A DNA stretch of 64,000 bases from a virus. The notes below the pieces were generated by a model that worked only from the letters and a program-made list of their open reading frames with translations, was not told the origin of the DNA and made no database searches. Positions 11,592-59,477 of the stretch are shown piece after piece. The position numbers and the translations under genes were made by a program. The first letter of the stretch is position 1, and each line of letters starts with the position of its first letter. The stretch is taken from the IMG/VR virus record IMGVR_UViG_3300022856_000003. One strand, given 5' to 3'.

Positions 11592-11626
11592 CTCCGGGTA
11601 CAGGCGAGGTGTCTGTCGGAGCAAAG

Positions 11627-12568
11627 ATGACCTCTCTTCTCACTCTCCCATATGACGAAAGAATTGCGAGTCGCAAAGAACTGGGAGGCCAGATCCTCGC
11701 AGTTCTCAAGCTCTTCAAGTTCCAGGAGATGGACGTACCGAACAACCGCGCTTTTAGACGGTCGCGGAATCTCGAAGCTCCTGGACGATGCTTCGTTCTC
11801 CCTCGGTCCTCTGGCTACTGCCACATCGTCTACTCGAACTTGGCCAATAGTGACATTGCCTTGAGACGGAAGGGCAACGGCTTGAACAAGCTTGAGTCGA
11901 AGCTGGAGATTTCTTTTGGGACTGAAACTAGCCCGTCAATGACTCGATCTGGTCCGGTCATCCTGCCTGGGTGGCTAACTCAGGACGGCAAGCTCAAGGA
12001 GGTCGGGACTAAGAAGAACGATCGCTATGTCCGAATGCTCAGTGTTGATCTGCTCCCTGTTTCTGAACAGGTGAAGAAGTTCGTCGAGAACCTCGAAGGT
12101 CACGACTGGCAACTACGCAATGGCTTCACTCACGTGCAAGCCTGCAAGAATTGCGGTTCTCCGATGTTCGTCGCGAAATCGAGTGGCCGTATGACCTGTT
12201 CCGACATCTGCTGGGAGTTCCCGAAGAGGAACGGTCTCGGAGGACCACCGGGTCCGAACCTCTACATGAAGGGTCTGACTGATCAGATTGAGTACGACCA
12301 CGAGGGACGTGTCGTCTACAACGACCATGAGGCGATCAAGCAGCAAAAGATGATGTACCTCGCGATTCGGACCGAGAGCAACATCCACCTCGGCGAGACG
12401 ACGCAGGATTTCCAGACTCGCGCTCTCGGTCTCTACGTCGTTGAGCACAGCAAAACCCCTCTGACGCCAGGCGACTGGCTAGAGGCGGCTCGACTCGCCA
12501 GGAGTCATGTCGCACCCATCACCACCACGGATGTCGAGAACCTTCTCTCAGACATCCTCTTCGATTGA
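11627..12568 (+). CDS. hypothetical protein with a Zn-ribbon (CKNC...CSDIC) and the C-terminal acidic tag
   Basis: ATG after GGAG; ends TDVENLLSDILFD. Confidence 0.65.
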   Translation: MTSLLTLPYDERIASRKELGGQILAVLKLFKFQEMDVPNNRAFRRSRNLEAPGRCFVLPRSSGYCHIVYSNLANSDIALRRKGNGLNKLESKLEISFGTETSPSMTRSGPVILPGWLTQDGKLKEVGTKKNDRYVRMLSVDLLPVSEQVKKFVENLEGHDWQLRNGFTHVQACKNCGSPMFVAKSSGRMTCSDICWEFPKRNGLGGPPGPNLYMKGLTDQIEYDHEGRVVYNDHEAIKQQKMMYLAIRTESNIHLGETTQDFQTRALGLYVVEHSKTPLTPGDWLEAARLARSHVAPITTTDVENLLSDILFD

Positions 12569-19889: not shown

Positions 19890-20288
19890 TTGGCGAAGAC
19901 GATCCGAGGATTCAAGATGCCGTTCCAGTCTTCTGGTGGGCGTCTACCTGCGTCTGCGGAAACCGATGACTCGGTCAACGCGAGCATTCGTCGTATCATC
20001 CACACTCGAAAGGGTGAGCGTCCGATGCGACCGAACGTGGGATCAAGGGTCTGGGATTACGTCTTCGAGAACGTCAACGCGACGGCAAAGGCTCTCATCC
20101 GCGCTGACGCTCGCAGGTCGGTGCAGGCTCAGGAGCCCAGAATCACTGTGCTGTCTGTGAAGGTCTCGAGCTTCGATGAGTTGATTGGGTTCCCTGGCCG
20201 CACTGGGTACCTGATCGACTTCACTTACCGGTTGTCTGGAAAGACGTACATGACCTCGACAGAACTCGACCCGGAGGCATCGGCATGA
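19890..20288 (+). CDS. baseplate wedge protein gp25/GpW
   Basis: SIRRIIHTRKGERPMRPNVGS...FE...EPRI. Confidence 0.9.
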   Translation: MAKTIRGFKMPFQSSGGRLPASAETDDSVNASIRRIIHTRKGERPMRPNVGSRVWDYVFENVNATAKALIRADARRSVQAQEPRITVLSVKVSSFDELIGFPGRTGYLIDFTYRLSGKTYMTSTELDPEASA

Positions 20289-22414
20289 CCACTGACGGCA
20301 TCACCGCAGTCAACCGAGCCAGGTACTCAGCCCGGGACTTCGACACGCTCTTCGACGACATGAAGCAGTATCTCGAGGATCGATATCCGACCGAGTTCAC
20401 GGACTTCCAGTCGACCACCCAGGGCGTAATGCTCATGGACATGCTGGCGCACAGCTTGTCCCAGCTTCATTGGTACATCGATCGCCGAGCGTCTGAGGCA
20501 TACCTCGACACGGCACGTAGGACGAAATCCGCCAGCAGACTCACTCGTCAGCAGGGCTACCGGATGCGCCCCTCTGCGTCATCGAGTGTGGAGCTGTCCG
20601 TCTCGCCAGAAGCCGCTCAGTTGTTCGAGTTCCCTGTCAAACAGGGCTTCAAGTTCACTGGACCGGAAGGACTCATCTTCGAGGCAACCGAGACGGTCAC
20701 TTGGGCCGCTGGCGACACGTCAACGAAGACTGTCTCTGTCCGAGAGGGCACCACGCTTCGTGTGACTTCGGCTTCGGATGGCACCGCAAGCCAGGAGGTT
20801 CGCCTTCCGGCTGCGGACAACGACGGCAACTTCCTCCTGAACAGCTCAGTGGTCGTCTATGTCGATGGCGTCCTGTGGAAAGAGGCTGACTTCCTCGACT
20901 TCGGAGAGAACAACCAGTTCGAGGTCCACTATCACGAGGAGCCTGCGCTGATTCGATTCGGGAACGCCATCAGTGGGAAGATCCCCGACATCGGCTCCGA
21001 CATCCGCATCAGTTACGTCGTCCAACACGGTGAAGGTGGCAACGTAGGCAACGGGACCATCGTCGATGTGGACACGTCGCTGGTGTACCGGTTCACGACC
21101 ATCGCGCTGACGATCACCAACGCGGATGCCAGCTCAGGTGGTGCGGACCCTGAAACCATCGAAGAGGCTCGTCGGAACGCTCCGAGGTTCTTCGGGTCCA
21201 GGAAGCGTGCCGTCACCCAAGAGGACTATCAGGTTCTTGCTGGGGTCTTCACGTCTCCTGAATACGGTGCTATCGCCGCCGCGAATGCCTTCGTAGCTCG
21301 GACGGTTGAAGAGGACCTGGAGGCTCAGGGGTACATCACAACCGTGAAGGGTGAGATAGAGACGTATCAGGTGGTCCTGGCGTCCGATGTGACGGCTGGA
21401 GAGGCGTCCGCTGCATCCGCCGTCGTCTCGACCACCACGCTCGCTCTGAGGTCCTCAGAGGTCGCTACGCAGACTGCTGCAATCATCGCTTCTGCCGCCA
21501 CCCTGGCGACACAGGCGAACGAGCTAGGGGCTCAGAGTCCGCAGATGCAAGCTGTGGTTGACCTGTTCGCGATCATGCTCGCCAACGACGGCACGTGGGC
21601 CTACGACATCGACGAGCTGATCACAGCAACTTCGTCGCTCGCTCCGGTCTCGGCTGATCTGACGAACAACTGGAAGCCAGCTATCACCCTCATGGACAGC
21701 ATCAACACGGCTGTGAAGGCTGTGCTCGACGCCAATGCGCCGGGGCTCAGGACGGGTGCGGTCAACATCGACTCCTACGCGGACCTCGCGGACAGCGCCC
21801 TTGCCGACATCGACACCGAGAACGCGGCCATCATCGTCATCGTGGGCACGGACCTGCCAGCGACATTAACGAGCATTGGCTCGATCGTCGCGACACATGA
21901 GGTGACGATCGACGCCACCCTCGACCTGCTCGAGGCCCACCTCACGGACATCCTGGGTGCCGACTGCAAGACCAACGTCATCACGGTCCCGGTACTGAGC
22001 TTCGACGGAGACGGGAACTACCAGGCACCGAGCCAGGCCCTCCGCAATGAGCTGGAGCGATACCTACAAGGCATTGCGGATGTGGCTCACGTCGTCAACG
22101 TGGTCAGTGGAGTCGCGGACATCGTCGTGGTGGACATCAGCGTCAACCTCAAACAGGCCGATTCCTTCGTGTTCTCCGAGGTGTCTTCTGACACGAACTC
22201 AGTCATCGTCACCGAGATGAAGAAGCGAGAGTTCAGTGCTTCGCTGTACCTCAACAAGGCGTACAAGCTCGTAGAAGACGTGACCGGAGTGGAAGACTTC
22301 GATCTGACCCTGTCGGCTGATGCGACCTATGTGGATTCGGCTGGAAACATCATCTGTCCCGAGTCCAAGGTCCTGACCCTCGGCACCCTCACCATCCTCC
22401 CGCTCGTCACATGA
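20285..22414 (+). CDS. baseplate J / gp6-like wedge protein with an Ala-rich insertion
   Basis: YSARDFD, WYIDRRASEAYL.TA, IRFGN...GKIP, GGADPETIEEARRNAP, RAVTQEDY. Confidence 0.9.
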   Translation: MTTDGITAVNRARYSARDFDTLFDDMKQYLEDRYPTEFTDFQSTTQGVMLMDMLAHSLSQLHWYIDRRASEAYLDTARRTKSASRLTRQQGYRMRPSASSSVELSVSPEAAQLFEFPVKQGFKFTGPEGLIFEATETVTWAAGDTSTKTVSVREGTTLRVTSASDGTASQEVRLPAADNDGNFLLNSSVVVYVDGVLWKEADFLDFGENNQFEVHYHEEPALIRFGNAISGKIPDIGSDIRISYVVQHGEGGNVGNGTIVDVDTSLVYRFTTIALTITNADASSGGADPETIEEARRNAPRFFGSRKRAVTQEDYQVLAGVFTSPEYGAIAAANAFVARTVEEDLEAQGYITTVKGEIETYQVVLASDVTAGEASAASAVVSTTTLALRSSEVATQTAAIIASAATLATQANELGAQSPQMQAVVDLFAIMLANDGTWAYDIDELITATSSLAPVSADLTNNWKPAITLMDSINTAVKAVLDANAPGLRTGAVNIDSYADLADSALADIDTENAAIIVIVGTDLPATLTSIGSIVATHEVTIDATLDLLEAHLTDILGADCKTNVITVPVLSFDGDGNYQAPSQALRNELERYLQGIADVAHVVNVVSGVADIVVVDISVNLKQADSFVFSEVSSDTNSVIVTEMKKREFSASLYLNKAYKLVEDVTGVEDFDLTLSADATYVDSAGNIICPESKVLTLGTLTILPLVT

Positions 22415-32117: not shown

Positions 32118-32580
32118 GTAGTCAGGAGATGCGCTGAATGTCATCAAAGCTGGAACGACTACGTCGTCTCAAAAAGCCGCAGAAATCTCCACAGGCGTTC
32201 CCGATCGTCCGTAAGAAGTTCCCTGTTCCCGGTACCGACGGGCAGGGACCTCTACAGCCGGAACTTCTGTCTATCCAGCCCCTCTCCAAACCAGCAGCAC
32301 TACTGGAGCTGTCTGAGAGCATCCAGAAGAAACGACGTGCGACCGGCAAGGTCATCGATGTGGATCTCTCTGAGTACGAGGGCAGACCTGATCAGAGATG
32401 TGAGAACTGCCCTAACCAGGCTACTGCGTGGTTCCTGATCTACATGGACGACCAGGACATGGACTTCTTCTTCAACGATCAGCAGTACACAGGACCCCAC
32501 CCGACTGCCTGTTGCACAGGTGCTTGTGCCAAAGAGTTCGGTGCCTGGGACGGAAGCAAGAAGGTTCGCGTCCGTCGCGT

Positions 32581-32632
32581 TTGAACATTCAGCGAACCAG
32601 TGTTACACTGTTCGCACAACGAAATCGATTTC
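32581..32632 (+). promoter_or_regulatory. sigma70-like promoter with a downstream palindromic site
   Basis: TTGAAC-17 nt-TACACT (32604-32609), then GAAATCGATTTC at 32621. Confidence 0.65.
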
Positions 32633-37982: not shown

Positions 37983-38603
37983 ATGAGTGAACCAACCCAG
38001 ATCCTCGTTCCATGGTCAGGTGGAGCCGACTCGACTCTCGCGCTGATGCTCGCCCTGGCGAAGTATCCGAAGATCACTCGGGCCATGGTTGTCGATTGTA
38101 CGAACTTCCCGAGGAAGCAATTCAAGGGAGAGGCCAGAGCCAGGCTTCACGCACATGCCTTCCTGGTGTCGAAGTTCGAGCTACCGAAGCACTGGCTATT
38201 CACTGTGAAGCTCGATTACCCCGCGCTCGACATGGGTAGCTGGAGTGTTGGGCAGGCCGTTGCGCTTCATCAAGCCGCCTCGATGGCCGTGAAAGACGGT
38301 GGTGAGATCTGGTGGGGCAGCATCCGAAGCGATGACTTCTGGACCTACTACGACAGGTACGCGAACCTCCACACTGCCCTCAAGGGAGTGATGGACAAGG
38401 ATTACAAGAACTTCTTCCCTTTGATGCACAAGAAGAAGTTTGAGGTCCTCGACGACCTCAAAGCGTTCGGAGTCACCGAGAAGATGCGGTGGTCCTGTTC
38501 TCAGAACTCGACACGACCTTGTCAAAAGTGTGACTCCTGCATCACTGAGGCCCTTGCCCACGTTGAGCGAGACCTGACCCCGAAAGGTGGCGTGAAGCCA
38601 TGA
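37983..38603 (+). CDS. QueC-like PP-loop ATPase (7-cyano-7-deazaguanine synthase family)
   Basis: WSGGADST PP-loop; C-terminal WSC...PCQKCDSC Zn site. Confidence 0.75.
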   Translation: MSEPTQILVPWSGGADSTLALMLALAKYPKITRAMVVDCTNFPRKQFKGEARARLHAHAFLVSKFELPKHWLFTVKLDYPALDMGSWSVGQAVALHQAASMAVKDGGEIWWGSIRSDDFWTYYDRYANLHTALKGVMDKDYKNFFPLMHKKKFEVLDDLKAFGVTEKMRWSCSQNSTRPCQKCDSCITEALAHVERDLTPKGGVKP

Positions 38604-39535
38604 TCGAACACTCGATGACAGTCATAGGTCCAGATGCCCCACCATCCGACCATGAGTGGGAGATACTCGGCCACCGTCGCGCCCGACTCCACTCGTCACA
38701 GCAAGGCTATCCAGTCGACGCCTACAACGATGTCCCGTTCAAGGACATCCCAGGCATGGTCATGAGCACGAACGTCCTGTCCGTGATTCGCTGCATCGAG
38801 GCGGATCGAGACAAGGAGATCAGGACACACATCACTATCGTCCACGGTGATGACGACGACGACTGGGTGGCCGAGCTGATGGAATACTGGTCTGACCGCG
38901 ACCTCGACGCCGTCGATAAGTTCCTCTGCGGTCCTGACCAGGGCATGAGTTCCGCTGCTCTCATCGCTGCCGTTTGTGGAAGGGTCAGTCCTGAGAACAA
39001 GTTGAAGTACAACGGCTACCTGCGTCCTGAATCAGCTCGTCGCGTCCCGGTCGACGCCGACTCGTTCCGCCGATGTAGTCTGGCTCTCGCTGCCCTCAAG
39101 GAGTGTGGATTGCTCCTGGCAGACCTTCGCGATGTCCTGTCGTCCAGGTGGTCTCCCATCATCACCAGATGGGCAGAACTGGAGCTGTTACTTCGCGAGG
39201 ATAACGCCACAAGAATGAACGAGATCCTCGACGACCGCGACGGTACTCATGTCGTGATCGACACAGGTGAAGGAGCGGATGGCTGGACGGCTAGCGTCGA
39301 TCCCAAGGGCATGGCCGACATGCTCTCTGAGCAATTAGGATTCCCAGTCACCGCCGACATCATCATCAATGTGGCAGAACAAGAAGGACACACCGCTGTG
39401 GACTACCTCGCACACGTTGTTCCCTGTGCCTGCTGTAGCGAGAGATTCTGCAACATCCACCTCGAGCACTGGGCCGATTGCCCGTGTCCCGGACCACATG
39501 GAGACGACGATGGCCACGAAGCCGAAGACGCCTGA
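38600..39535 (+). CDS. hypothetical protein
   Basis: 311 aa coupled ORF with a Cys/His-rich C-terminus. Confidence 0.6.
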   Translation: MIEHSMTVIGPDAPPSDHEWEILGHRRARLHSSQQGYPVDAYNDVPFKDIPGMVMSTNVLSVIRCIEADRDKEIRTHITIVHGDDDDDWVAELMEYWSDRDLDAVDKFLCGPDQGMSSAALIAAVCGRVSPENKLKYNGYLRPESARRVPVDADSFRRCSLALAALKECGLLLADLRDVLSSRWSPIITRWAELELLLREDNATRMNEILDDRDGTHVVIDTGEGADGWTASVDPKGMADMLSEQLGFPVTADIIINVAEQEGHTAVDYLAHVVPCACCSERFCNIHLEHWADCPCPGPHGDDDGHEAEDA

Positions 39536-41372: not shown

Positions 41373-42239
41373 ATGCGACGACTGCTCATCGGCCTTCCTC
41401 TCTTGGCATCCCTGCTCTTCACAGGTTGCGATCTCGCCAGCGGATCGCTCGACGAACCGATTGGGCCTGATGCCTCCTACGTCGAGGATGACCCGAGCGC
41501 GGACAACGATGGTGACGGCTGGGCCGCTCGTTGGGACTGCGACGACGGCAACGAGGACATCAATCCAGACGCCTCCGACACGGTGGGCGATGGTGTCGAC
41601 CGCAACTGCGACGGCGTGGACGGCGTGGACTTCGACCTCGACGGTTGGGCTGGTGAACCCAGTGGCGGCCAGGACTGCAACGACGACGATCCGAACGTCA
41701 ACCCAGACGCCCTCGAGATTCCATATGACCAGATCGACAACAACTGCGACGGCGAAGATGCGAACGGCATCACGACCTGCGACTCGGTACCGACCCCCAC
41801 CGGCAACGACATCGGCGACGTGACCGAGGACTTCCTTCTACGAGACAGTCAGAACAACCCGATCATCCTCAGCGACTACTGCGGTATGGCCGTCGTCCTG
41901 GCCTCCGTCGCTCGATGGGAGCCGAACAGCCACGACCTCGCACCAGTGCTACAGGACTTCTACGAGGAGTACCGCGAACAGGGACTCATGGTCATCACGA
42001 TGGTCGGCGAAGGCGTCATGTTCGGCGGCGACTCTGCGACTCCCGACGACCTGGACTGGTGGACCAGCGAGTACGACATCACCCACCCTGTCGTGGGCGA
42101 CCCAGACTGGGAGATCTCTGACCGTTGGGAAGAGGATTTCTACCTCCCGTCCTTCATCCTCATCGCCCCGGGCATGCGGTTGGTGGCGAGGGACCTTCTG
42201 ACCGTGACCGAGGACGACATCCTCTCGATCCTCCCCTAA
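41373..42239 (+). CDS. lipoprotein with MopE-like metal-binding repeats and a redoxin-fold domain lacking CxxC
   Basis: Lipobox LFTGC; two DCxD..NP.A....DxNCDG repeats; DFLLRD...LSDYCG...WEPNS in place of WCxxC. Confidence 0.75.
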   Translation: MRRLLIGLPLLASLLFTGCDLASGSLDEPIGPDASYVEDDPSADNDGDGWAARWDCDDGNEDINPDASDTVGDGVDRNCDGVDGVDFDLDGWAGEPSGGQDCNDDDPNVNPDALEIPYDQIDNNCDGEDANGITTCDSVPTPTGNDIGDVTEDFLLRDSQNNPIILSDYCGMAVVLASVARWEPNSHDLAPVLQDFYEEYREQGLMVITMVGEGVMFGGDSATPDDLDWWTSEYDITHPVVGDPDWEISDRWEEDFYLPSFILIAPGMRLVARDLLTVTEDDILSILP

Positions 42240-42257: not shown

Positions 42258-42285
42258 TTGACATCCACAGCCAGGGAGGTAGAGT
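42258..42285 (+). promoter_or_regulatory. sigma70-like promoter embedded in an inverted repeat
   Basis: TTGACA-16 nt-TAGAGT, flanked by CTCCCTGG/CCAGGGAG. Confidence 0.55.
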
Positions 42286-42291
42286 GTTCTC

Positions 42292-42815
42292 ACTTCGAGG
42301 GGGAACACCCCAAAAGGTACCCGCAGCCGCAAGGCGAGACTGACGAAATCGATTTCACTTCGGTGAGAAAGACTAGAAGGAAGGTGCCAGGGAGGGAGCC
42401 CAGAGCGCCCCTTGAAGTAGTTGACCGACCCTCAAAGTCGCAGCCACCAGGAAGCCTTCGCGGGAATCCCAGGTGCTCGGAAGGGGAAGGGACAACAGCC
42501 CGAAGGCGAAAGCCGGAAGGTGCCGACCCTCCACTGGGAGCGCCGCAAGGCGATGTGGAACAGGCAGGACCAGCAAAGCTCTCGAGTTGAGCCATTCCGA
42601 CAACACCCTCGTCACCCGCTTCGGCAGGTCACGGGGGTGAAGTCGTTGTGCTTAACATCACCGACTGCTAGTATGTGCTTGCCAGCCAACAGCGGACAAG
42701 GCTTTGGCCCGTGAGTGCGCGTCCTGGGCGTGGGAGGGGAGACCCGCTTTACCACCGATGGATGCCTGCAAACCGGGGTGGGTAGCGAGTGGCTGACCAT
42801 GGCTGGCCTTGACCC
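42292..42815 (+). ncRNA. putative large structured ncRNA, family unknown
   Basis: About 520 nt without a credible ORF, behind its own promoter; many GNRA/UUCG-capped hairpins (GCC-GCAA-GGC, TCAC-TTCG-GTGA, GGC-GAAA-GCC, CGCC-GCAA-GGCG, GC-TTCG-GC, GGG-GAGA-CCC). Ends are approximate. Confidence 0.6.
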
Positions 42816-42821
42816 TTGATC

Positions 42822-42850
42822 TTGCGTCTTTGATGCCGTTGTGCTATGTT
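42822..42850 (+). promoter_or_regulatory. sigma70-like promoter
   Basis: TTGCGT-17 nt-TATGTT, extended -10. Confidence 0.5.
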
Positions 42851-44264
42851 CAACAGGTCGAGACGACCCATTGATACCTCGCAGGTGCGAGGACCGGGAG
42901 AAGCCATGGACCAAAATACCCTCATCCTGACAGCAACCGACGGCGAAGAGATTCGCCTCATGCCGAACAGCTCTGGCACGGAAGGCACACATGCCATCTG
43001 CGTCAACGGCTGGAACGAGGGGATTGAGCATTTCGACAAGCATGGGGACGGCAATACTGTCATCCCATGCTCACCCGATCGGATTGGAGCAATGTCACCC
43101 GCTGATGCCTACCAGGAGTTCTTCCGTCGCATGGACGAGGAGTCCATCGACATGATCGTCCACGGTATGAATGCGGGCTTCTACGAGATGGCACAGGTGG
43201 AGCTGGACTACGCACATCGACCCTACGTCCTCAAGGTCCTCGGTGAACAGATGGGATGGGTAGAGCCCAACCCTGGCAACCTGACCTACTCGGCGTTTCG
43301 TTCACTGCCGACGATCGTTGGTCCAGTGAGTGCTGCGGACATCAACGGTTGCCTCGACGTGGTGAACGGATGAGAGCCAAGACCGAAATCGCGTACCACG
43401 CTGAGGAGCAGCTCTCCGCAGCACTACAGCTTGTGGCAGCTCTCGTCCTCACCGACGAGGAAGTTGCCGAAACGGCTCCTGATGCACGTCCAGGGAACCT
43501 CGTAGGGTGGGCCGAGTCGACGCGCAAGGAGATGCTCGACGAGCACAACAGACCGAAGATCGTGGCGATGCTCAAGCGTCGCGGGTACTACACGAACACG
43601 CATATCGGGTTCCCGCTGGCCTCGTTGAGTTCGCCAGGCCCTCGCGCACTCGAGGACGGCCTCGAGAAGTGTAGAGCCATCTCTGATGCCATACGAGATG
43701 GATCTATCAACTATGACCTCGACACTGGGCCGAAGAGCATGACTGATCGCCTTGTCCATGACGGGATGCGACAGGCCGATGCTGAATGGATAGTCAGAGC
43801 CCATGGCACAACGATGTTCCTCCTGGCGTCGATGGATAGGGTGATGGGACGAACGAAGTGACCGATCCCGAACCAGAGCGCGAGTACACAAGGAAGGAAG
43901 ACTTCATCTTCGATTTCCTCCTGTGGGCACTGCCAGGCATCCCGTATTTCGACACCGAGAAGAACCCGTTGAAGCGAATCAACGGAGACCAATGTGACTA
44001 CCCTGTCGACGACATTGTCCACCCGGCTGACTGGCCCGTTTGCTACACCCTCCTCTACACGAAGAGAGACGGAGCCGGAGAGTGCTGGACAAGTGCCATG
44101 GGATTCTCTCGATGGCTGTGGTTCGCGAGGCTCTGGCAGAAGATGGCGCTAAGGCACTACACGACCGAGCTTCGCAAGGACCAGAGAAAGTGGAAGCGAC
44201 GCCTTCCTCCTACTGGCTACGGCTACTCCGTGACCATCGTGCCGACGGTGTGGGTGGACTAGAC

Positions 44265-47078
44265 ATGAGCAAGAAGAATCGATTTGGCCCGAAGGGCGAC
44301 TGGAACCGCAAGTTCCACCCTGGGAAGGTCAAGAAGGCTGATCTCGACGACGACCTCGGCATAATCTTCGACATGGCGGCTGAGATCCATGCACAGGACA
44401 AGTCGCTGTTCGGTGAACTGTTCGATCAGATCTCCTCGCAACCCTCCCTTGTGAAGAAGTCGGCCTCTGTGACATTCGTTCCTGCTGCACAGAAGTCGCC
44501 GCAAGAACTGTTGCTGTCAGGTGAGATCAATGACTTCAAGAACTCCATCGCCGCCGCTTTCAGTATTCCGAAGGAGTTCATCTTCGGAGCGGACGAAGAT
44601 CCACCAGTCGTCCTGTGTAAAGGATGCGACCCGACACTGCTACAGGCCGATGTGGAGTGGTGCGAGATCTGCTACGTGGCAGGGATCAACCCCTGCGGTG
44701 AGATCCCAATGGATGGCCCACCCACGGACGAAATCGATTTCGCGACTCTGACCCCAGAGGTCTTCGCAAAGATGACCTCGTCTCAGCGCGGATCCATGGT
44801 CGGGAAGATCATGAAAGCGGTGGGCAAGTACTCACTCAATGGGCTCGATGTTCCGAAGGAACTGCTTGATGCTGTACAGGCTATGGCTCTAGCCGCGACG
44901 ACCCATCTCGACGCCAGCCCTGAGAATGACGAGCTACAGAACAAGATCAAGATCCCCAAATACGACATCAAGTTCGTCAAGGACAAGCCAGGGGCAGGAC
45001 TCATTCCTTGCGGACCGGTGACGCCGACACCCATGCCCTACCCGAAGTCTGGGCTCTGGGGGAATCTGAGCGCTCACGACCTCATCAGTGTCCAGCCGAT
45101 GACGAACCCAGCCGGAGCTAAGTTCCACTTCGACTACAAGTACGCCGAGGACGCCGAGAGCGAGGGCGTGGTCGTCGAGGACGAGGGGCTCCTGCTCGCT
45201 TCTCTCGGGTATAGCGACGGAGACATCAAGAAGATCCTCGCCGACAAGGCTGAGGCGAAGAAGAAGGAGTGGCAAGACTCTCTCCCTGGCCTGTCCGACA
45301 TCAAGCTGACGAAGACAGAGGTCACGGTCCACCCTGACAAGAAGCTCAAAGCCAAATGGGGTGTCGAACCCGTTGAGGACTTCAACAGTCCCGACAGCAT
45401 TCAGTCTGAGGCTGACCTGATAGGTGAATGGCTAGAGGACACAGGCGTGACGCCGACAGTGCTACCCAACCCGACAGATTTCGATGAGGACACTCTCGCC
45501 GCGTTCGCTGAGGCCAAGCTCAACAAACAGAAGGTCGCCCTGCTGGTGAAGGACTGGAGAAAGGTCCACCCTGGTCAGTCATTGCCACCGTTCTGTAAGA
45601 AGCATTCCGACTACGGCGCGATGATGTTCGGTGAGATCCTTGTCCACTGCGACAATGGGAACGGAACCCTGACCCTAGTCACAGGTGTGGTTGTCCCACA
45701 CTCGAGCGAAGGTGTGCAGATCATCGTGGAGAAGTCTCTTGCCTCCTCTGGAGGTGTGGGATTGAGCGACATGGGAGAAGCACTAGCCGACGTGGTCAAT
45801 AGCTCCCTGGATCTGCCACCACTGAAAGCAATCGACTACTTCCTTGCTATAGGCGTCTCAGGCTCGGACGCCCCGACCTACCTCCCACAGGGCTGCTACA
45901 TCGGAGCTGGCACGAAGAACATCGTATGGGGAGTGCCAGGCTCTCAACACGCTGTGACTGTGGCTGCCATCCACGAGAACCACTTCACCCTAGTGACAGG
46001 CGTGAACGTCCCGATCAAGCCGCCAATAGGCCCGAAGCCGATCTTCATGGATGCAGACGGCCAGAAGCCGATCTTCGCGCCCTACATCCCAGTCGAGTCG
46101 ACCCCCACGCTCGAGCTGAAAACAGCCAACGCCAAGTACGCGAAAAAGACTCTCAACCCGGCGCACTACGGTGTGGTCCCTCTCTCGAAGGGAAAGACGC
46201 AGACCGCTGTCGCAGCGAAGATGACCATCAAGGGCGTAAGCCAATCGATGATCTTCTTCGACGCCCAGACCGGGACCGAGTACTACATCGACCCCGTAAC
46301 TGGAGATCTTCACGAGGTGACTCGAGTCGTGACCAACGAAGACACCCTGACCGTGACAGTCATACCCAACAGTAAGAGCACGTTCTTTCCGGTGTCTCCA
46401 CTAGATGTCAAGAACGGAACACTGCCCTTCTCTATCAAGATGGCGATGAAAGCCAAGGCTGTCCTAGAGGCCAAGATCGCGCAGGAGACTGAGGAGATGG
46501 CTGACTTCAAGGAGCTGATGGGTGCTCCCCTCAAGGACAAGACCTCGTCAACGGACCAGTACAGCCCGATTCCCAAGCCCATCGTCTACCGAAAGAAGCT
46601 CCTCGGCGTGACCGTGGAACACATCCAATCGGAGCTGCTACCAGATGGTGAGAGCTTCCAGTACTACAAGGACGTAGTGACCGGAGACCTCCACAAGATC
46701 GTGGAAGCATCGAGCGGATGGGCCACATCCAAGGACGATGCGAAGACGTGGGTAATCGTCGAGGAGAACCCGGAAGCCACAGCTCCACCGACACACCCAC
46801 TGCTGCATAAGCTGAACACGAAGAAGAAAGTCAACGGTGATGTAGCAAGCCTCGAGGCTGAGGAGCACGTAGACGAGAATGGCGACCTCACTGTGAAGTG
46901 GGCTCCCAAAGCCAAGATGGTCACCCACACCGCTTCCTTCAAGAACAATGAGAAGCCTGAGAACCCAGACGACTTCATGTACGCAATGGAACAAGCTCAA
47001 GCTGACCGCATTCAGGCGAAGCTCGACGCAACACCACCATGGGAACAAGCACTCGACCTACTACACGACATGGACTAG
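44265..47078 (+). CDS. large mosaic protein with gp23-capsid-like, portal-like and RNR-like motifs and the C-terminal tag
   Basis: ATG 44265 follows the upstream stop; DLISVQPM, KKLKAKW, APYIP..TPT...YAKK...P..YG, IAAAFSIPKEFI and NPCGEI motifs. Confidence 0.7.
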   Translation: MSKKNRFGPKGDWNRKFHPGKVKKADLDDDLGIIFDMAAEIHAQDKSLFGELFDQISSQPSLVKKSASVTFVPAAQKSPQELLLSGEINDFKNSIAAAFSIPKEFIFGADEDPPVVLCKGCDPTLLQADVEWCEICYVAGINPCGEIPMDGPPTDEIDFATLTPEVFAKMTSSQRGSMVGKIMKAVGKYSLNGLDVPKELLDAVQAMALAATTHLDASPENDELQNKIKIPKYDIKFVKDKPGAGLIPCGPVTPTPMPYPKSGLWGNLSAHDLISVQPMTNPAGAKFHFDYKYAEDAESEGVVVEDEGLLLASLGYSDGDIKKILADKAEAKKKEWQDSLPGLSDIKLTKTEVTVHPDKKLKAKWGVEPVEDFNSPDSIQSEADLIGEWLEDTGVTPTVLPNPTDFDEDTLAAFAEAKLNKQKVALLVKDWRKVHPGQSLPPFCKKHSDYGAMMFGEILVHCDNGNGTLTLVTGVVVPHSSEGVQIIVEKSLASSGGVGLSDMGEALADVVNSSLDLPPLKAIDYFLAIGVSGSDAPTYLPQGCYIGAGTKNIVWGVPGSQHAVTVAAIHENHFTLVTGVNVPIKPPIGPKPIFMDADGQKPIFAPYIPVESTPTLELKTANAKYAKKTLNPAHYGVVPLSKGKTQTAVAAKMTIKGVSQSMIFFDAQTGTEYYIDPVTGDLHEVTRVVTNEDTLTVTVIPNSKSTFFPVSPLDVKNGTLPFSIKMAMKAKAVLEAKIAQETEEMADFKELMGAPLKDKTSSTDQYSPIPKPIVYRKKLLGVTVEHIQSELLPDGESFQYYKDVVTGDLHKIVEASSGWATSKDDAKTWVIVEENPEATAPPTHPLLHKLNTKKKVNGDVASLEAEEHVDENGDLTVKWAPKAKMVTHTASFKNNEKPENPDDFMYAMEQAQADRIQAKLDATPPWEQALDLLHDMD

Positions 47079-47199
47079 CCGGTGAGTGATCACTACACCC
47101 AAGGCATGAACACCCAATAGCACTAGCACTCACACCAGTGAGTCCCCTAGTAGTGCAGTCCTTGTCCAGTCATAGTCTGACCACCACCACAGCTCCAGA

Positions 47200-47521
47200 T
47201 CTTGCACCATTAGACGTGGTGACCCACCCTCCCCCCCATAGGTGCCAGCCCTAGCTACGTCAGCCCTGGCTTTCAAGCCCTAGCTAACAGCCCTAGACAA
47301 TTGTTAAGGGCTAGCTTACTCCCGCCCTAGTGATTGACCTAGTTGTACGACAAGCGGAAACAGCACCATTTATGGGAAGACCCCCCTCCCCCCTATTTCG
47401 CAGCCCTTCCGGTCTGTTCAGGTAGCAGCGTCCGCACCAATGGCGTGCTACTCCCGCAGCCGGAAAGCGCCGTTCCCATCAGGTCTCTGATCAGCACCAA
47501 TTTATGGGAAGACCCCTCCCC
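47200..47521. repeat. iteron-like repeats and a ~30-bp direct repeat (candidate origin or packaging terminus)
   Basis: (A/C)GCCCT(A/G)G at 47247, 47262, 47276, 47289 and 47323, inverted at 47307; CAGCACCA(A)TTTATGGGAAGACCCC..TCCCC at 47361 and 47492. Confidence 0.7.
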
Positions 47522-47527
47522 ACTCTG

Positions 47528-47556
47528 TTGACGTGCTCTGATTGTTCAGCTAGAAT
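47528..47556 (+). promoter_or_regulatory. strong sigma70-like promoter
   Basis: TTGACG-17 nt-TAGAAT, with TGTTCA in the spacer. Confidence 0.75.
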
Positions 47557-47562
47557 GATTGT

Positions 47563-47694
47563 GAGGCGAGGTGTTCCAGGCAGCAACATGACGGGCGGTT
47601 CGATTCCGCTGACCGAGGGCGAAAGCTCCATACCGGCCCGGTTTGGGTGGTTGATAGAGGTTCCGTAGTGTTGCTGCCTTGAGCGCCTTGCTCC
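47563..47694 (+). ncRNA. ~130-nt structured RNA with a tRNA-like T arm (Y RNA/YrlA-like topology)
   Basis: 5' and 3' ends pair (GGCAGCAACA/TGTTGCTGCC); T arm GGCGG-TTCGATT-CCGCT; GAAA hairpin; starts at the predicted TSS. Confidence 0.65.
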
Positions 47695-47735
47695 TAAATC
47701 CAAATGTTCGACGAGGTGTCGTTCAGGAGTTCTAA

Positions 47736-51813: not shown

Positions 51814-52458
51814 GTGACACCGGACGAATACTACGCCCACGTCAGCCCGCCGCGTAAAGCCTTATCGAAGCTACTTAGTGGCCTCGCGCAGATCGTACTC
51901 GATGCGGGCTCTGGCAATTCCGTAGGCTGGCGAGGCGCAGTCCGCGCCATCAACTCGCTGCCGATGCTGGCGGAAGAGATCGAGATTGCCGAGAATCCGC
52001 CGTACAGCTACGAGACGAAGACGCCATGGGAGATGGGTCAGCTCGGTTGGCAGGTAGAGAACACCGTCAACTTGCTCGGGTGGGGTAAGTCCACTGGATG
52101 CTCGATTCGCATCCGCCGTTGGGACTGGCATGGCGACCATGGTGATGCCCACTTCCTGGTGAACTACACGACAGAAGACGGGTACCAGGACGCCTACGAC
52201 CGATGCTGCCGTAAGGCGCTCCAGGCGTGGAAGGAGTATCGAAAGCCGGGATGCCCGCCCAATGGCATCGGCAAGGCATTGAAGCGAGACAAGCTCAAAG
52301 AGGGCATGCGCGACCGCCTCTTCGGCGACGACGACACGAAGGTCAACACCACCGTTGAGGTGCTGCTCGCGGAACTCGACAATGCGCTTGGCTTGCCGAT
52401 GTTCGCCAACGAAGAAGACCCAGTCGAGAACGCTCTCGACACGGTCCAGGAGGATTAG
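51814..52458 (+). CDS. hypothetical protein with the C-terminal tag
   Basis: Ends EDPVENALDTVQED. Confidence 0.65.
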   Translation: MTPDEYYAHVSPPRKALSKLLSGLAQIVLDAGSGNSVGWRGAVRAINSLPMLAEEIEIAENPPYSYETKTPWEMGQLGWQVENTVNLLGWGKSTGCSIRIRRWDWHGDHGDAHFLVNYTTEDGYQDAYDRCCRKALQAWKEYRKPGCPPNGIGKALKRDKLKEGMRDRLFGDDDTKVNTTVEVLLAELDNALGLPMFANEEDPVENALDTVQED

Positions 52459-52982: not shown

Positions 52983-53609
52983 ATGGGTAATATCGGCGGC
53001 CTGATGAGGCGAGGTGCCTTGTCCATCGACACTGTTCGACCAGTGGCTCGACAAGTCTGTCTGGACCTGTTCCCGACACTCATCAAGGTGGTCGATGCCG
53101 AACACGGTGTTCTCTTCGAGTGGGTCCACGAAGATGACCGCGCCGCCGCCTACCAGGGCGAAGCCTTCTGCTGGTACCAGTACAACCGCTCGAAGGTCGG
53201 TGGAAAGCCCATCCGATGGGGTGAGTTCGGCTGGTGGCTACGAGGCCGGATCGAGGCCCACACTGCCGACCGACTCAGCGGAGTCGTAAAGCACTGGGAC
53301 GAAGGTGTCGGTGAAACCTGGCTACCAGACCTCGAGAAGCACAAGACCCCCTGGGAATACCAGCGTGGGTACCTGAGCAACTCGACCTCGGTGTGGGCTG
53401 ACTGCGCGTTAGTTCTCGCTGCCTTCTCGGGATACAAGAAGTTGCCTGCGGGACTCGATCAGAAGTACATCGACGACTACCCCGAATGGGTCCAGATCGC
53501 CTCATGCCCCGCCCCAAAACAGCCGCCGATGTGGTGGAAGTTGCTCACGGGCAAGTTGAAGCCGAAGACCGAAGTCGACGAAGTACTCGACATCATTGGA
53601 GAAGACTGA
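52983..53609 (+). CDS. hypothetical protein with the C-terminal tag
   Basis: Ends KTEVDEVLDIIGED. Confidence 0.65.
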   Translation: MGNIGGLMRRGALSIDTVRPVARQVCLDLFPTLIKVVDAEHGVLFEWVHEDDRAAAYQGEAFCWYQYNRSKVGGKPIRWGEFGWWLRGRIEAHTADRLSGVVKHWDEGVGETWLPDLEKHKTPWEYQRGYLSNSTSVWADCALVLAAFSGYKKLPAGLDQKYIDDYPEWVQIASCPAPKQPPMWWKLLTGKLKPKTEVDEVLDIIGED

Positions 53610-54552: not shown

Positions 54553-54855
54553 ATGACCGTCGAACTGAGCAAAGAAGACTTCAACATGCTCATCGTCGGC
54601 GCAGTCCGCTACGCCATCGGACGACAGACCTACGTCGTCCAGGAGACAGTGGATCTGGTGCTACGACACAGAGATTCCATCACCAGGGGCCGCTGCCAGA
54701 TCATCGTGAGGTCCATCCGCGAGGAGGAGAAACGGAGCCGTCTAGGAGGAAGACCCGACACGTACCGGTGGACCCGTCTCGCCGAGGCACTCGAGCAGCC
54801 ACCAAGACCGTCGGACCCTGTCGAAGCCGCGCTGGATGACATCGCGTTCTCTTGA
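54553..54855 (+). CDS. hypothetical phage protein with the C-terminal tag
   Basis: GAVRYAIGRQTY motif; ends SDPVEAALDDIAFS. Confidence 0.65.
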   Translation: MTVELSKEDFNMLIVGAVRYAIGRQTYVVQETVDLVLRHRDSITRGRCQIIVRSIREEEKRSRLGGRPDTYRWTRLAEALEQPPRPSDPVEAALDDIAFS

Positions 54856-54880: not shown

Positions 54881-55032
54881 AGAAATATGCCGCGTGAAAG
54901 CTCCAACGTCCGAATCGCCAACGCAATCAAGCTCCTGGACGACTTCGCCACCGAGGCGTCTTCCACTGATCAGGAGCCCGAGCAAGATGAGTGGTGGGAT
55001 CTCCTGTACGCCGTCCTCAAGGCGCTGAGAGG

Positions 55033-55470
55033 ATGAGCTACCACGTCGAGGAACTCGAGAAGTTCAGCAAGGCCCGAAAGACCGATCAGGACGCTCGATT
55101 CCAGATGGGCCGTAAGTACCAGCTCCTCACGCCGCGAGTGCAGGAGGTCGTGGCGATCTGCCGTGGCATGACAGATCGTCCTCCGAGGGACACTCGGTTC
55201 AAGCTCTGGCGCGTCAAGAAGATGGGCTCCGTCATCGAGGTGCTTCACGAGAGATACTACGGAGAGGGGGTCTACGGTGTGTGCTCGCGTATCCAGTTCC
55301 CCGCCTCCTGGCTCGACATGCCAAGGGATGAGATCAAGGCTGAGATGACTCTCACGCAGCAGAAGATCACCGACTTCGATGACGGTCAGGAAGGCTACCC
55401 AGCCGTCCCAGGGCCTCCGCAACCAGATACCGACCCGGTCGAGGACTTCCTCGACGACCTGATGGAATAG
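55033..55470 (+). CDS. hypothetical protein with the C-terminal tag
   Basis: ATG 55033; ends TDPVEDFLDDLME. Confidence 0.65.
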   Translation: MSYHVEELEKFSKARKTDQDARFQMGRKYQLLTPRVQEVVAICRGMTDRPPRDTRFKLWRVKKMGSVIEVLHERYYGEGVYGVCSRIQFPASWLDMPRDEIKAEMTLTQQKITDFDDGQEGYPAVPGPPQPDTDPVEDFLDDLME

Positions 55471-55773
55471 ACATGGTTGGACCAAAAGAGCGGTACTCGA
55501 AGCCCATCACGATCTGGTGAGCCGTGGTCGTAGGGTATGGCCCGAAAGGGACGTGCCCGACCGGCAGGTTGCCGGTATTCAGTGTCGAGACCGAAGAGGA
55601 AGCTGAGGCGTTGATCCAGCTCGCCTGTTCGACGAACTACGAAGGCGAGTACATCGCGAAGGAACTGGCGGAAGAGCAGACCATGGAGAACCTCCAGGCA
55701 TTCAGCGACCGACTTGCCGACATCCACGAGAGGTTCTTCGCTCCACGGTGCCCCGCGAAATCGATTTCACCGG

Positions 55774-56160
55774 ATGAGTAGGACCTGCCAGAGGTGTGGC
55801 GACACAGATCCGCCGTCCATCAACACGGTCTGTCAGAACTGCGGGGCTCTCATCCGTGGAAACAGAGTCCGCAATTTTCGATACGTCGTGAGCCAGCAAG
55901 GGAGCCACTGGGTCGCCCGCGTGTTCTCCGGGTACAGAGGGGAAACCTTCGCCGCCCTGGGTGCGCTTACGATGGACAAGACTGACGTGGAGGATCTTCA
56001 CGAGATAGCCAACTACACGCCGTTCATTGAGGTCCAGTTCGCCATAGCTGCGGAGAGGCAACTTGTTAAGATCAGGTACGACAGGGCTGGCCCAAAGAAG
56101 TCCCCTGACTCTTCGATAGAGGCCGAACCTAGTCTCCTCGACATCATCCAGGACACGTAG
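55774..56160 (+). CDS. Zn-ribbon protein with the C-terminal tag
   Basis: CQRC...CQNC; ends AEPSLLDIIQDT. Confidence 0.6.
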   Translation: MSRTCQRCGDTDPPSINTVCQNCGALIRGNRVRNFRYVVSQQGSHWVARVFSGYRGETFAALGALTMDKTDVEDLHEIANYTPFIEVQFAIAAERQLVKIRYDRAGPKKSPDSSIEAEPSLLDIIQDT

Positions 56161-56208: not shown

Positions 56209-56715
56209 ATGAGCACAGACCCACGACCATCCTGGCTACTCGACGCAAAGCTCAAGGTAGAGCTGGTGCCGCAGACATCCTGGGGCAACAACCTCCGATC
56301 CCTCCTGCGTCGAAAGGACTGGGATAACCTGCGCCGAGAGGCGTACATGAAGGCTGGTCACGTCTGCGAGATCTGCGGAGGCAAGGGTCGAAAGCACCCC
56401 GTCGAATGCCACGAGATCTGGGAGTACGACGACGATGCGAAGATCCAGAAGCTCACTGGGCTCATCGCTCTCTGTCCCGCGTGTCACCGCTGCAAGCACC
56501 CCGGTATGGCCGCAAGGATCGGCCTGATCGCCAACGTGTTCGCTCAGCTCGAGAAAGTGAATGGATGGACCTGGGACCAGGCCCGCGTGAGTCTCGAGCT
56601 TGCCTTTGAACTTCACCGACTCCGCTCGACCGTCCCCTGGACCGTCGACACGGACTGGCTCGGACTCGACGAGCAAGGTGTGACCTTGCTTCGCATGGGG
56701 ACTTCCGGTGAGTGA
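56209..56715 (+). CDS. HNH endonuclease-family protein
   Basis: LVPQTSWGNNLRS, CEICG, CHEIWEY, LCPACHRCKH. Confidence 0.85.
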   Translation: MSTDPRPSWLLDAKLKVELVPQTSWGNNLRSLLRRKDWDNLRREAYMKAGHVCEICGGKGRKHPVECHEIWEYDDDAKIQKLTGLIALCPACHRCKHPGMAARIGLIANVFAQLEKVNGWTWDQARVSLELAFELHRLRSTVPWTVDTDWLGLDEQGVTLLRMGTSGE

Positions 56716-57784
56716 TCGTTCCCAAGGCGAGTTCTGGGTCCACCGGAAGTACGCCGAACTCGTCAGCTACATGGTCGACTGCGGCGGATGCGAAGCCGAG
56801 AGCGAGGAGGAATGGCGTCTCCTGGTGTTCGAGCCCGCCTACGGCCAGTTACACGGGGATGCCAACGACGTAGAAGATACCACCGTTGTCCACATCACCC
56901 AGGGAGAGATGGCCGGAGGTGGCTACTCGGTCTCCGAGAGCATGGCTGGTCTAGGCATCCCGTTCCAGCACTACGGGAGCCGCCACTACATGTGGGCTGA
57001 GTACCGTAGTTGCTCTCTCGGCAAGCCAGGAGACTGGGGAAACTACGACTACGAGGGCGGGTACTGCCTGGAGTTCGGCAACGACTCAAAGCCTATCCCT
57101 AAGCATGTGGAGGTCATTGGGGCCTTTCATCACAGATGGCTCAAGATCGGACGCATCAACCTGGGGGCTTACCCCTATGTCCCGAAAGACGGCAGCGTGG
57201 GTGCGTGGTGGTTGAAGTACGTGGTTGAGAGGAAGGTCGAGGAGGCTGAGGCGGCTGAGAACAGTGTCGTCAAGGACATGTCGACTCAGATGGCTCAAGA
57301 GATCGACGCCGACATCATCAAGACGTTGAACGCTGGTTTCCAGAAAACAACGTCCGCGCTCGATGACGCGCAAGAGAAGCTCAAGCAGTTGAAGCTCAAG
57401 AAGGACCTCCTTGCATGGTCGGCGAAGAAGAAGGCCGCGAAGAAGAAGGCTAAGCTCGAGAAGCTCAAGGCGAAGAAGAAGCTCGTTGAGAAGGTCGTTG
57501 AGACGGCCATGGTCCAGAGCATGAAGAAGGACTTCAATATCGACTACTTCTGCGCTTCCTGTGAGGATCTCGGTTGCTTCCAGTGCGCGGAGAGTGAGCC
57601 TGAATCTTCCTGTACCGAATGCGACGGATCGGGTTGCTACGAATGTGAGGATGTCGTCGGGAAGTTCTTGCCGGATGCTGAGAACGGCACGGTCTGTAAG
57701 AAGCATGGCCTCTACGCCTGCTTTTCATGTGTTCCTGGCGCAGTCGAGCCTGATGTTCTGGACATCATCTACAACACGGACTGA
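56708..57784 (+). CDS. mosaic protein with a gp23-like helix, Lys-rich coil, Cys-rich repeats and the C-terminal tag
   Basis: MSTQMAQEIDADIIKTL; CxxCxxxGCxxC twice; ends EPDVLDIIYNTD. Confidence 0.65.
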   Translation: MSDRSQGEFWVHRKYAELVSYMVDCGGCEAESEEEWRLLVFEPAYGQLHGDANDVEDTTVVHITQGEMAGGGYSVSESMAGLGIPFQHYGSRHYMWAEYRSCSLGKPGDWGNYDYEGGYCLEFGNDSKPIPKHVEVIGAFHHRWLKIGRINLGAYPYVPKDGSVGAWWLKYVVERKVEEAEAAENSVVKDMSTQMAQEIDADIIKTLNAGFQKTTSALDDAQEKLKQLKLKKDLLAWSAKKKAAKKKAKLEKLKAKKKLVEKVVETAMVQSMKKDFNIDYFCASCEDLGCFQCAESEPESSCTECDGSGCYECEDVVGKFLPDAENGTVCKKHGLYACFSCVPGAVEPDVLDIIYNTD

Positions 57785-58101: not shown

Positions 58102-58533
58102 GTGAGTCAGGCCGACATTCTCAAGAAGCCCTGCCCAGGGTGCCCTTTCTCTCGAAAGACGGATCCGAAGTACCTCAAGTCTCGAGGCGAAGACGTGCGC
58201 CGATTCATCGGACAGTCCGTCGGCCCATTCTTGCTCCCGTGTCACACGTTCGCGGACAAGGAAGACTGGCCTCTCGACGTGGAGCGGCCACAGTGCGTGG
58301 GTGCTGCAATGCACCGAGACCTCATCGGCGTTGCGGACAGTCTCCCAGAACAGCTCACCAGAGCCACAGGTGACGCTGAGGAGGTCTTTGAGTCCTCTGC
58401 CGCGTACATGGCCTATCACGATGGCTGCACCGTCGAGGAGGCCGTAGAGAAGCTCGACAACTATCCTGTGAATCGTCTCTTCTACGACGAGATCGCTCGT
58501 TGTCATCGATCAGGACGAAAGGTGAAGGCATGA
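58102..58533 (+). CDS. Cys-rich protein (PCxxCPF family)
   Basis: KPCPGCPFSRK...PCH...QCVGAA. Confidence 0.6.
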   Translation: MSQADILKKPCPGCPFSRKTDPKYLKSRGEDVRRFIGQSVGPFLLPCHTFADKEDWPLDVERPQCVGAAMHRDLIGVADSLPEQLTRATGDAEEVFESSAAYMAYHDGCTVEEAVEKLDNYPVNRLFYDEIARCHRSGRKVKA

Positions 58534-59477
58534 GCGTCAAGCTGTACGGAGGTCGCATCCGCAGGATGGGCATCACGAACATCCATGCGTGGCAGTTGAA
58601 TCTACAGAAGGCTGCTGACCAGATGACTCAGGCCGCGCGGTTGTTCGCGTATGACTTCGTCTTCAATCAGGCAGTACGTCGTGCAGACCTTCTCGCCTGC
58701 GGTATGCCGTTTCACGGCGAGTTCCCCTGTGCCCCTGACCAGGCTGCATTCCAAGACCCTGCGAATGCATTGAGTCCGTTCAGCGCGGCCTGCGAACTCT
58801 ACCAAAAGCGGGTCGAGAATCTAAAGAAGGGCACACGCGATCCCCTGACGGATCGCTCGATGGAGCTGTGTTGGCACATGCAGATCGACGGGAGCATCCT
58901 GGTCATCCTCTACGGCGAGCGAGATCAGAAAGCGATGGCCACGAAGCTCCTCGGTCTCGATGACTACCACTACCAGAACCAGTCTGATCCCTCGGAGGAC
59001 TGCTCCAAGCAGGAGTGGGCCGAGCGCGGGACAGCATGGTCGACCCTGTTGGACGGATGGAATGCGGCTCCCGCCGCGAGGATGTCCACCTTCCAACTGG
59101 CTCCCCCACCCGAGTTCCTCATCTGGTGGAAGGGTCACCACCCTGAGAACCTGACGTGCGACACGCTTCCCGAGCGACTCCACCAGCTCGCCACCGAGCG
59201 TATCCACCTCGAGCACCCACTCCCGAAGAAGGATGGAGAGACCATCGGCGATTTCGTCGGGAACATGGGTGCCCACATCACCGACATCAAGAGCAGGACG
59301 AAGCCGGGAGGTGATCTCCAGAACCGATGGCTCGAGATCCTCGTTGACTGCAACGAACGCATCCCGGCGGAACCCAGTCTGGAGTGGGTCAAGACGCGAC
59401 GTGCCGCACCCACGGTCGGACCTACGGCGCTCGATGCTGCTCTCGACGAGATTGAGAAGTCGAAGGACTCCTCATGA
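58530..59477 (+). CDS. hypothetical protein with the C-terminal tag
   Basis: DYHYQNQSD motif; ends PTALDAALDEIEKSKDSS. Confidence 0.65.
   Translation: MSVKLYGGRIRRMGITNIHAWQLNLQKAADQMTQAARLFAYDFVFNQAVRRADLLACGMPFHGEFPCAPDQAAFQDPANALSPFSAACELYQKRVENLKKGTRDPLTDRSMELCWHMQIDGSILVILYGERDQKAMATKLLGLDDYHYQNQSDPSEDCSKQEWAERGTAWSTLLDGWNAAPAARMSTFQLAPPPEFLIWWKGHHPENLTCDTLPERLHQLATERIHLEHPLPKKDGETIGDFVGNMGAHITDIKSRTKPGGDLQNRWLEILVDCNERIPAEPSLEWVKTRRAAPTVGPTALDAALDEIEKSKDSS

Follow-up and report, generated by a model that had tools for sequence, protein, structure and literature searches.

An apparent second, extremely diverged paralogue of the gp23-type major capsid protein in an uncultured salt-lake phage

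The IMG/VR virus record IMGVR_UViG_3300022856_000003 derives from an uncultured salt-lake phage of ~144 kb, of which we analysed a stretch of 64,000 nucleotides (nt; hereafter the window) with a G+C content of 59% and nearly all of its genes on the + strand. At positions 44265..47078 (+) it contains an open reading frame (ORF) encoding a protein of 937 amino acids (aa), here called P0001, and the translation agrees with the original prediction for this locus, which had described the product as a mosaic of capsid-, portal- and reductase-like peptides. By sequence comparison, P0001 is almost certainly a second, extremely diverged and lineage-specific paralogue of the phage's own gp23-type major capsid protein (MCP), and it stands outside the conserved head of this lineage. 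Three blocks, at 45054..45182 (block 1, aa 264-306), 45297..45425 (block 2, aa 345-387) and 46044..46190 (block 3, aa 594-642), are the sole regions of P0001 that match MCPs of the gp23 family; these and all other features given below for the gene, its operon and its promoter-like motifs are on the + strand. The exact 937-aa product is called on nine public metagenome contigs, the longest of ~144 kb, and the DNA of the gene is identical in all five loci fetched. A single uncultured phage population is known to carry P0001, and the practical reach of the finding is limited until the protein is expressed.

A clade-specific hidden Markov model (HMM) built from 122 MCPs matched P0001 in three colinear domains (E 6.4e-18, 60.9 bits), at aa 265-306, 345-387 and 594-642, with domain E values of 7.4e-9 for block 1 and ~1e-3 for the other two, and hhalign placed the three blocks in a single colinear alignment with a probability of 96%, the regions between them being without signal. 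The three segments which the original prediction had likened to capsid motifs in their native order are thus both significant and colinear; all seven peptides it quoted are present in the translation, six of them where it had placed them, the exception being TKTEV...KAKW, which starts at 45309 and not at ~45300. Block 1 corresponds to MCP HMM positions 82-120 and aligns to residues ~105-132 of T4 gp23, block 2 to HMM positions 248-289 (the KLKAKW strand and the first spine-helix turns), and block 3 to HMM positions 441-493 (the C-terminal APYIP...TP...KYAKK strands). Assuming the usual HK97/gp23 layout, we take these to be the N-arm and E-loop base, the returning E-loop strand together with a P-domain strand and the initial spine-helix turns, and the P-domain strands of the C-terminus, respectively. 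Identity to the clade MCPs over the 120 block positions is 39-44%, and P0001 holds the QPM..P.G, KLKAKW and APYIP..TP...K..KYAKK motifs and keeps 17-23 of the 47 invariant MCP columns.

Searches of general databases pointed to the same family. The Pfam profile PF07068 (Gp23) matched aa 267-298 at profile positions 18-49 of 376 (E 5.6e-5), with a score below the curated cut-off of that profile (23.1 vs 24.4 bits), and PHROG 138 ('major head protein') matched approximately aa 267-305 (E 1.3e-4). Scanned word-free with HMMER, 1.84 billion representatives yielded, besides P0001, only three proteins, all of them strong Gp23 MCPs and each matching P0001 in three colinear stretches. A word-indexed search of 5.8 billion proteins returned P0001 itself and nothing else, a scan of IMG/VR gave no match, and the PDB sequence search gave nothing at E<=10. 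Among 50,697 phage records, blastn with the gene found no match and tblastn found weak matches only, of aa 270-395 to the MCPs of Rak2-like jumbo phages. The ESM Atlas led from the whole protein to Gp23 clusters (0.82) and from aa 1-263 to clusters of short Gp23 fragments (0.76); both values lie below the level treated as more than a lead, and neither query returned portal clusters.

The canonical MCP of this phage (P0005, 492 aa, a strong Gp23 match) is encoded ~8 kb before the start of the window and ~52 kb upstream of P0001, in the gene order 718-aa Peptidase_S77 protein (prohead protease), MCP, acidic low-complexity 341-aa protein, gp13 homologue and topoisomerase IB. Alignment of P0001 to this true capsid protein returned the same three colinear blocks (phmmer E 6e-10), which bears out the suggestion in the original prediction of a 'very degenerate capsid paralog'. 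The top block scores of P0001 were with the closest relatives of the phage's own MCP, which itself ranked 11th of 122 (41% identity); this ranking is consistent with a duplication that took place long ago in the lineage, and the native codon usage of the gene also counts for paralogy. Related phages are represented by five IMG/VR contigs, of which two reach a completeness of at least 90%, with MCPs that are 39-52% identical to P0005. In each contig there is a single Gp23-family gene, so that the lineage closes its capsids without P0001 and without a gp24-type vertex gene, and none contains a P0001 homologue, apart from the match to MCP block 1. With regard to replication genes, no match to a family-B DNA polymerase was found in the relatives G005 and G001 (one of the relatives being 100% complete), and the lineage is perhaps T4-like in its virion genes and not in its replication.

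Many MCPs 50-84% identical to that of the phage are present in metagenomes, which makes competitors plausible, and P0001 could conceivably be a dominant-negative assembly poison which caps or derails the capsid lattice of co-infecting related phages, giving superinfection exclusion. The retention of inter-capsomer blocks and not of the intra-capsomer A domain (see below) would suit such a poison, as would a gene in an accessory region. However, the blocks are about as similar to the phage's own MCP (41%) as to those of its rivals (39-44%), and self-poisoning would therefore be expected; no precedent is known, and we consider this very improbable.

Outside the three blocks, P0001 has lost, replaced and gained large parts. 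Between blocks 1 and 2 it has 38 aa vs the 127 HMM positions of the MCP insertion domain, and an HMM of the insertion module failed on P0001, whereas the same HMM matched the tail sheath with E 2e-23; a relocation of the module to aa 452-490 was considered and not supported, as only DNGNGTLT matches. Between blocks 2 and 3, an unmatched segment of 206 aa (45426..46043) stands where the MCP has the remainder of its spine helix and its A domain (150 HMM positions), and there is no counterpart in P0001 of the spine-helix invariants L286-E287-x-D289-R290 or of the A-domain invariants R341, A344, N345, V348, P351, G397, G402, D413, P414, G428 and G431. A propeptide cleavage motif ([LI]-x-E), which in the MCP is LNE at aa 57-59, was not found in aa 50-385 of P0001. 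Among the gains is an N-terminal extension (44265..45053, aa 1-263) without detectable relatives, in which a putative zinc knuckle, CKGC-N11-CEIC, can be read from the translation (44616..44672, aa 118-136), with NPCGEI next to it at aa 142-147. The C-terminal extension (46191..47075, aa 643-937, ~296 aa) contains an internal repeat of 42-48 aa, with copies at 46278..46403 (aa 672-713, starting YYIDPVTGDLHEV) and 46659..46802 (aa 799-846, starting YYKDVVTGDLHKI) that are 38% identical over 48 aa (E 9e-6).

Pieces resembling the MCP also occur in other proteins of the window. In the tail sheath (2836-5283, 815 aa), the beta-module which forms the MCP insertion domain is present three to four times, with four domains matching the insertion-module HMM and with matches to the MCP HMM at aa 192-243, 248-294 and 432-510. 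A 358-aa protein (56708-57784) is rich in cysteine and lysine and poor in arginine (34 K, 8 R), and its aa 183-233 marginally match the spine-helix segment of the MCP (HMM 283-334; E 0.03 among 1272 ORFs), the piece absent from P0001; kinship of this protein with P0001 was rejected, as the two have no similarity. A candidate Gol-like fragment at 32138-32584 matched the clade MCP HMM at chance level (E 4.5).

The pattern of retention and loss bears on whether P0001 could be a minor structural capsid protein, either a gp24-like vertex protein or a special capsomer subunit, with its C-terminal repeats projecting as a fibre or decoration. Such a protein would be expected to be MCP-derived and to keep the lattice-contacting P-domain blocks, as P0001 does; the C-terminal extension holds a duplicated strand-rich module, no gp24-like gene follows that of the MCP, the next gene encoding the 341-aa acidic protein, and the head accessory genes hoc and soc of T4 are likewise distant from gene 23. 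T4 gp24 is such a paralogue, located at the vertices (PMC5694885). However, P0001 lacks the invariant residues of the spine helix and the A domain, the propeptide cleavage site is missing at the equivalent position, and the five relatives make do with a single Gp23 protein in closing their capsids; two features presented below, host-type promoter motifs in an accessory gene setting and a C-terminal tag common to small non-structural-looking proteins, also speak against a structural role, which we regard as unlikely. With the Pfam score below cut-off, the lost insertion domain and invariants, the lack of a cleavage site and relatives without a homologue, P0001 does not look like a standard shell protein, and it is probably not a subunit of the shell at all.

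No usable fold came from structure prediction. AlphaFold2 gave a predicted local distance difference test score (pLDDT) of 38 for P0001 from its single sequence, and for aa 255-650 with an MCP alignment a pLDDT of 42 and a predicted template modelling score of 0.31; the ESM Atlas model had a pLDDT of 0.38. A complete HK97 fold had been set in advance as refuting the idea of a decoy, and neither predictor gave a confident fold. A prediction of the complex of MCP aa 60-492 with P0001 aa 255-650 scored 0.08 (mark 0.32), and is informative neither way.

The original prediction had in addition seen a gp20-type portal motif and part of a ribonucleotide reductase (RNR) in the N-terminal extension. 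The portal-like peptide is present (44523..44597, aa 87-111) and aligns to a motif, DIEYFxxKLxxxIKIPKAYL, which is conserved among the portals of three relatives, but the match is not significant (E 0.03-0.9 in a search space of one to three sequences), and Pfam Portal_T4 (PF07230) gave nothing on P0001 at E<=1. NPCGEI is indeed common to P0001 and the class II RNR of the phage, NrdJ (8801-10807, aa 332-337), but as a resemblance it is a chance-level hexamer, with six of eight residues identical and a pairwise BLAST E of 0.22. P0001 has three hexamers in common with other window proteins where 0.8 are expected, a number reached in 6% of shuffles, and no heptamers. The mosaic of capsid, portal and RNR epitopes, which was the premise for a multivalent decoy, therefore reduces to its capsid component. 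Portal-like fragments do occur in accessory ORFs of related phages: two small ORFs (G002:C1:4562-4804 and G001:C1:27061-27540) end in such a fragment (..YYIDVG..P.EA...), that of G002 matching positions 186-236 of Pfam Portal_T4 with E 5e-7, and the N-terminus of the G001 ORF is HNH-like (CxxC...HH...CxxCH), which suggests that part of a core gene was duplicated in these phages in association with a homing endonuclease.

The composition of P0001 is unusual, as its 87 lysines and 7 arginines give the most extreme K/R ratio of the window. The depletion of arginine is even across the three parts of the protein (K/R 26/3, 32/1 and 29/3), and in comparison with the clade MCPs, conserved MCP arginines have become lysine. 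The codon usage is native (G+C at third codon positions 0.72), and the 2.8-kb (2,814-nt) open frame has strong codon-position GC periodicity. The reverse K/R bias is found two operons away, in a 288-aa fusion of MopE metal-binding and AhpC-TSA parts with a signal peptide (41373-42239; 0 K, 10 R).

At its extreme C-terminus P0001 carries a hydrophobic-acidic tag, WEQALDLLHDMD (47040..47075), which is common to other proteins of this phage. Defined as [AVLFI]-L-[DS]-x-[ILV] in acidic surroundings among the final 13 residues, the tag occurs at the C-terminus of 11 of the 94 window ORFs vs 0.65 expected, a 17-fold enrichment, and P0001 fits this definition; it is absent from the two related phage genomes searched (G005 and G001). 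Tagged proteins unrelated to one another are encoded at 11609-12568, 51814-52458, 52983-53609, 54553-54855, 54991-55470, 55714-56160, 56708-57784 (the Lys-rich protein described above) and 58500-59477, and have the ending xE/DxxLDx[ILV]xxD/E in common.

Codon periodicity, uniform arginine depletion and the enriched C-terminal tag all count in support of functional maintenance of P0001. This has to be set against the idea that the gene is a decaying or accidental mosaic without function, left over from an old event of duplication or recombination and by chance still open. An orphan without relatives that neither predictor folds could be such a relic, and the portal fragment with its HNH-like protein is an example of core-gene fragments in accessory ORFs of related phages. 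Nevertheless, we consider it highly improbable for a frame of 2,814 nt with normal codon-position GC to be kept open by accident in a compact genome, with strong and uniform avoidance of arginine extending to R to K changes at conserved MCP positions, a docking tag intact at the exact C-terminus, and translational coupling within an operon.

P0001 is the final gene of this tightly coupled operon of four genes (42906-47078), in which gene 1 (42906..43373, 155 aa) overlaps gene 2 (43370..43861, 163 aa) by 4 nt, and gene 3 (43858..44262, 134 aa) stops 2 nt short of the P0001 ATG; none of the three belongs to a known family. Searches with Pfam and PADLOC returned nothing for the operon partners and the downstream genes, and P0001 and four neighbours matched none of the PADLOC defence and counter-defence profiles at E<=1. 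The operon is preceded by a non-coding stretch of 667 nt, at the start of which is a sigma-70-like promoter, TTGACA-16-TAGAGT (42258..42285), although with three TTGACA-type sites in 8 kb vs 2.1 expected this is suggestive only. The same stretch contains two extended -10-like motifs of the class TGYTABDNT, TGCTAGTAT at 42666..42674 and TGCTATGTT at 42842..42850, the latter 56 nt before gene 1. There are nine copies of TGYTABDNT on the + strand of the window (10811, 26980, 32109, 32601, 37215, 42666, 42842, 56172 and 63509) and none on the - strand, eight of the nine being intergenic, and the motif was not found before sheath or baseplate genes; this makes it a suggestive candidate for a promoter class of this phage. 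Eight of the nine copies sit just 5' of non-structural genes.

Downstream of P0001 lies another non-coding stretch, of 657 nt (47079-47735), containing a 30-nt direct repeat (47368 and 47500), GCCCTAG repeats, and a 38-nt imperfect inverted repeat (47557-47594 and 47663-47700) which encloses a T-loop-like motif, GGTTCGATTCC. Rfam and ARAGORN searches gave no match in the non-coding stretches on either side, the inverted repeat included. The wider region from 27 to 64 kb is poor in homologues, with only two weak matches in two related genomes besides that of P0001 to the MCP, and a neighbouring gene (38600-39535, 311 aa) is an orphan too. The structural genes do match, and distant relatives have only structural genes in common with this phage. 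Other identified genes of the window are those for the tail sheath, the class II RNR and a gp6-like baseplate wedge protein (20285-22414).

The promoter motifs and accessory setting, taken together with block 1, allow a reading in terms of host immunity. In this reading P0001 would be a capsid mimic made early, occupying or mis-engaging a host sensor of the MCP, or of the MCP-EF-Tu complex as in the Gol/Lit system, before the MCP itself appears. Block 1 is the best-kept block, and the T4 gp23 residues to which it aligns presumably include Gol. The most conserved region of T4 gp23 contains Gol and binds EF-Tu (PMC3014915). Early-type promoter motifs and an orphan gene in an accessory region would also agree with a mimic, but an early Gol-like peptide is expected to trigger a Lit-type system and not to block it, no defence or anti-defence family was matched, and the 'multivalent' premise has fallen, which together make this reading quite improbable. 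A broader version, in which an early capsid mimic with lattice-contact and Gol-equivalent surfaces, freed of arginine and tagged, either blunts a capsid sensor or sabotages the assembly of rivals, is rather unlikely as well; if true, it would be the first phage structural-protein mimic used as a weapon.

As the best explanation overall, we tentatively favour a neofunctionalised paralogue of the gp23-type MCP. In HK97-type proteins the P-domain and E-loop base make the inter-capsomer contacts, and the A domain makes the intra-capsomer contacts. Since P0001 keeps blocks of P-domain type and has lost the A domain, a repurposed paralogue which binds the MCP or a partner of the MCP is favoured, and the operon coupling, the + strand -10-like motifs and the homologue-poor 27-64 kb region are counted as an accessory setting in its support. 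P0001 would then have kept the P-domain/E-loop-base unit for binding to a normal contact partner of the MCP, most likely the MCP itself or capsomer edges in assembling proheads, and its C-terminal tail could dock it to a candidate hub used by the other tagged proteins. It might thus serve as a tether or modulator of capsid assembly and not as a brick, the detail of a tether or adaptor being a guess.

Several points weigh against this favoured reading. The 206 unmatched residues may conceal a divergent A domain, and this would speak for a structural role; that the three blocks still make up a P-domain is a presumption. The timing of expression is read from promoter-like motifs, the total count of TGYTABDNT being that expected by chance, and the T4 late promoter TATAAATA is absent from the window. 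The P0001 DNA, being identical across contigs, yields no ratio of non-synonymous to synonymous substitution (dN/dS), and a further Gp23 paralogue or a clamp gene may lie in the other ~80 kb of the genome.

Capsid-protein paralogues are mainly known as vertex proteins, and these are still full capsid proteins. P0001 differs from them in combining the three most conserved blocks of the family with new domains, a near absence of arginine and a phage-specific docking tag. Should it bind proheads, EF-Tu or a host sensor, a core structural gene would have been recycled to a regulatory or conflict function, pointing to functional hot-spot surfaces of gp23-type proteins; if it proves to belong to the virion, P0001 would represent an HK97 subunit remodelled to an unusual degree.

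Finally, we compared P0001 and its tag with the closest known systems. The tag resembles the clamp-binding epitope of T4, where gp43, gp55 and gp33 bind the sliding clamp via a hydrophobic-acidic C-terminus (PMC2988020), in being short, hydrophobic-acidic, at the extreme C-terminus and present on several unrelated proteins of one phage, although no clamp was found for this phage in the sequence read. Like P0001, T4 gp24 is the product of a second Gp23-family gene in the same phage and is MCP-derived (PMC5694885), as reflected for P0001 in its colinearity with the MCP. However, gp24, a full-length HK97 protein, is the size of an MCP, is encoded next to gene 23 and is processed by gp21, whereas P0001 retains ~120 of ~410 core positions, is twice as long, lacks an equivalent cleavage site, is encoded ~52 kb from the MCP gene in an accessory operon, and has a counterpart in none of the five relatives. 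Compared with the gp23-family MCPs (PF07068), P0001 has the three blocks at 39-44% identity but lacks the insertion domain, the LExDR and the A-domain signatures, and has added ends and a K/R of 87/7. The Family 4 'A-domain' encapsulins are truncated HK97 proteins with functions other than building a closed phage shell, and they resemble P0001 in keeping only part of the HK97 fold; the part that they retain is the A domain, and that of P0001 is the complementary set of P-domain and E-loop-base blocks.

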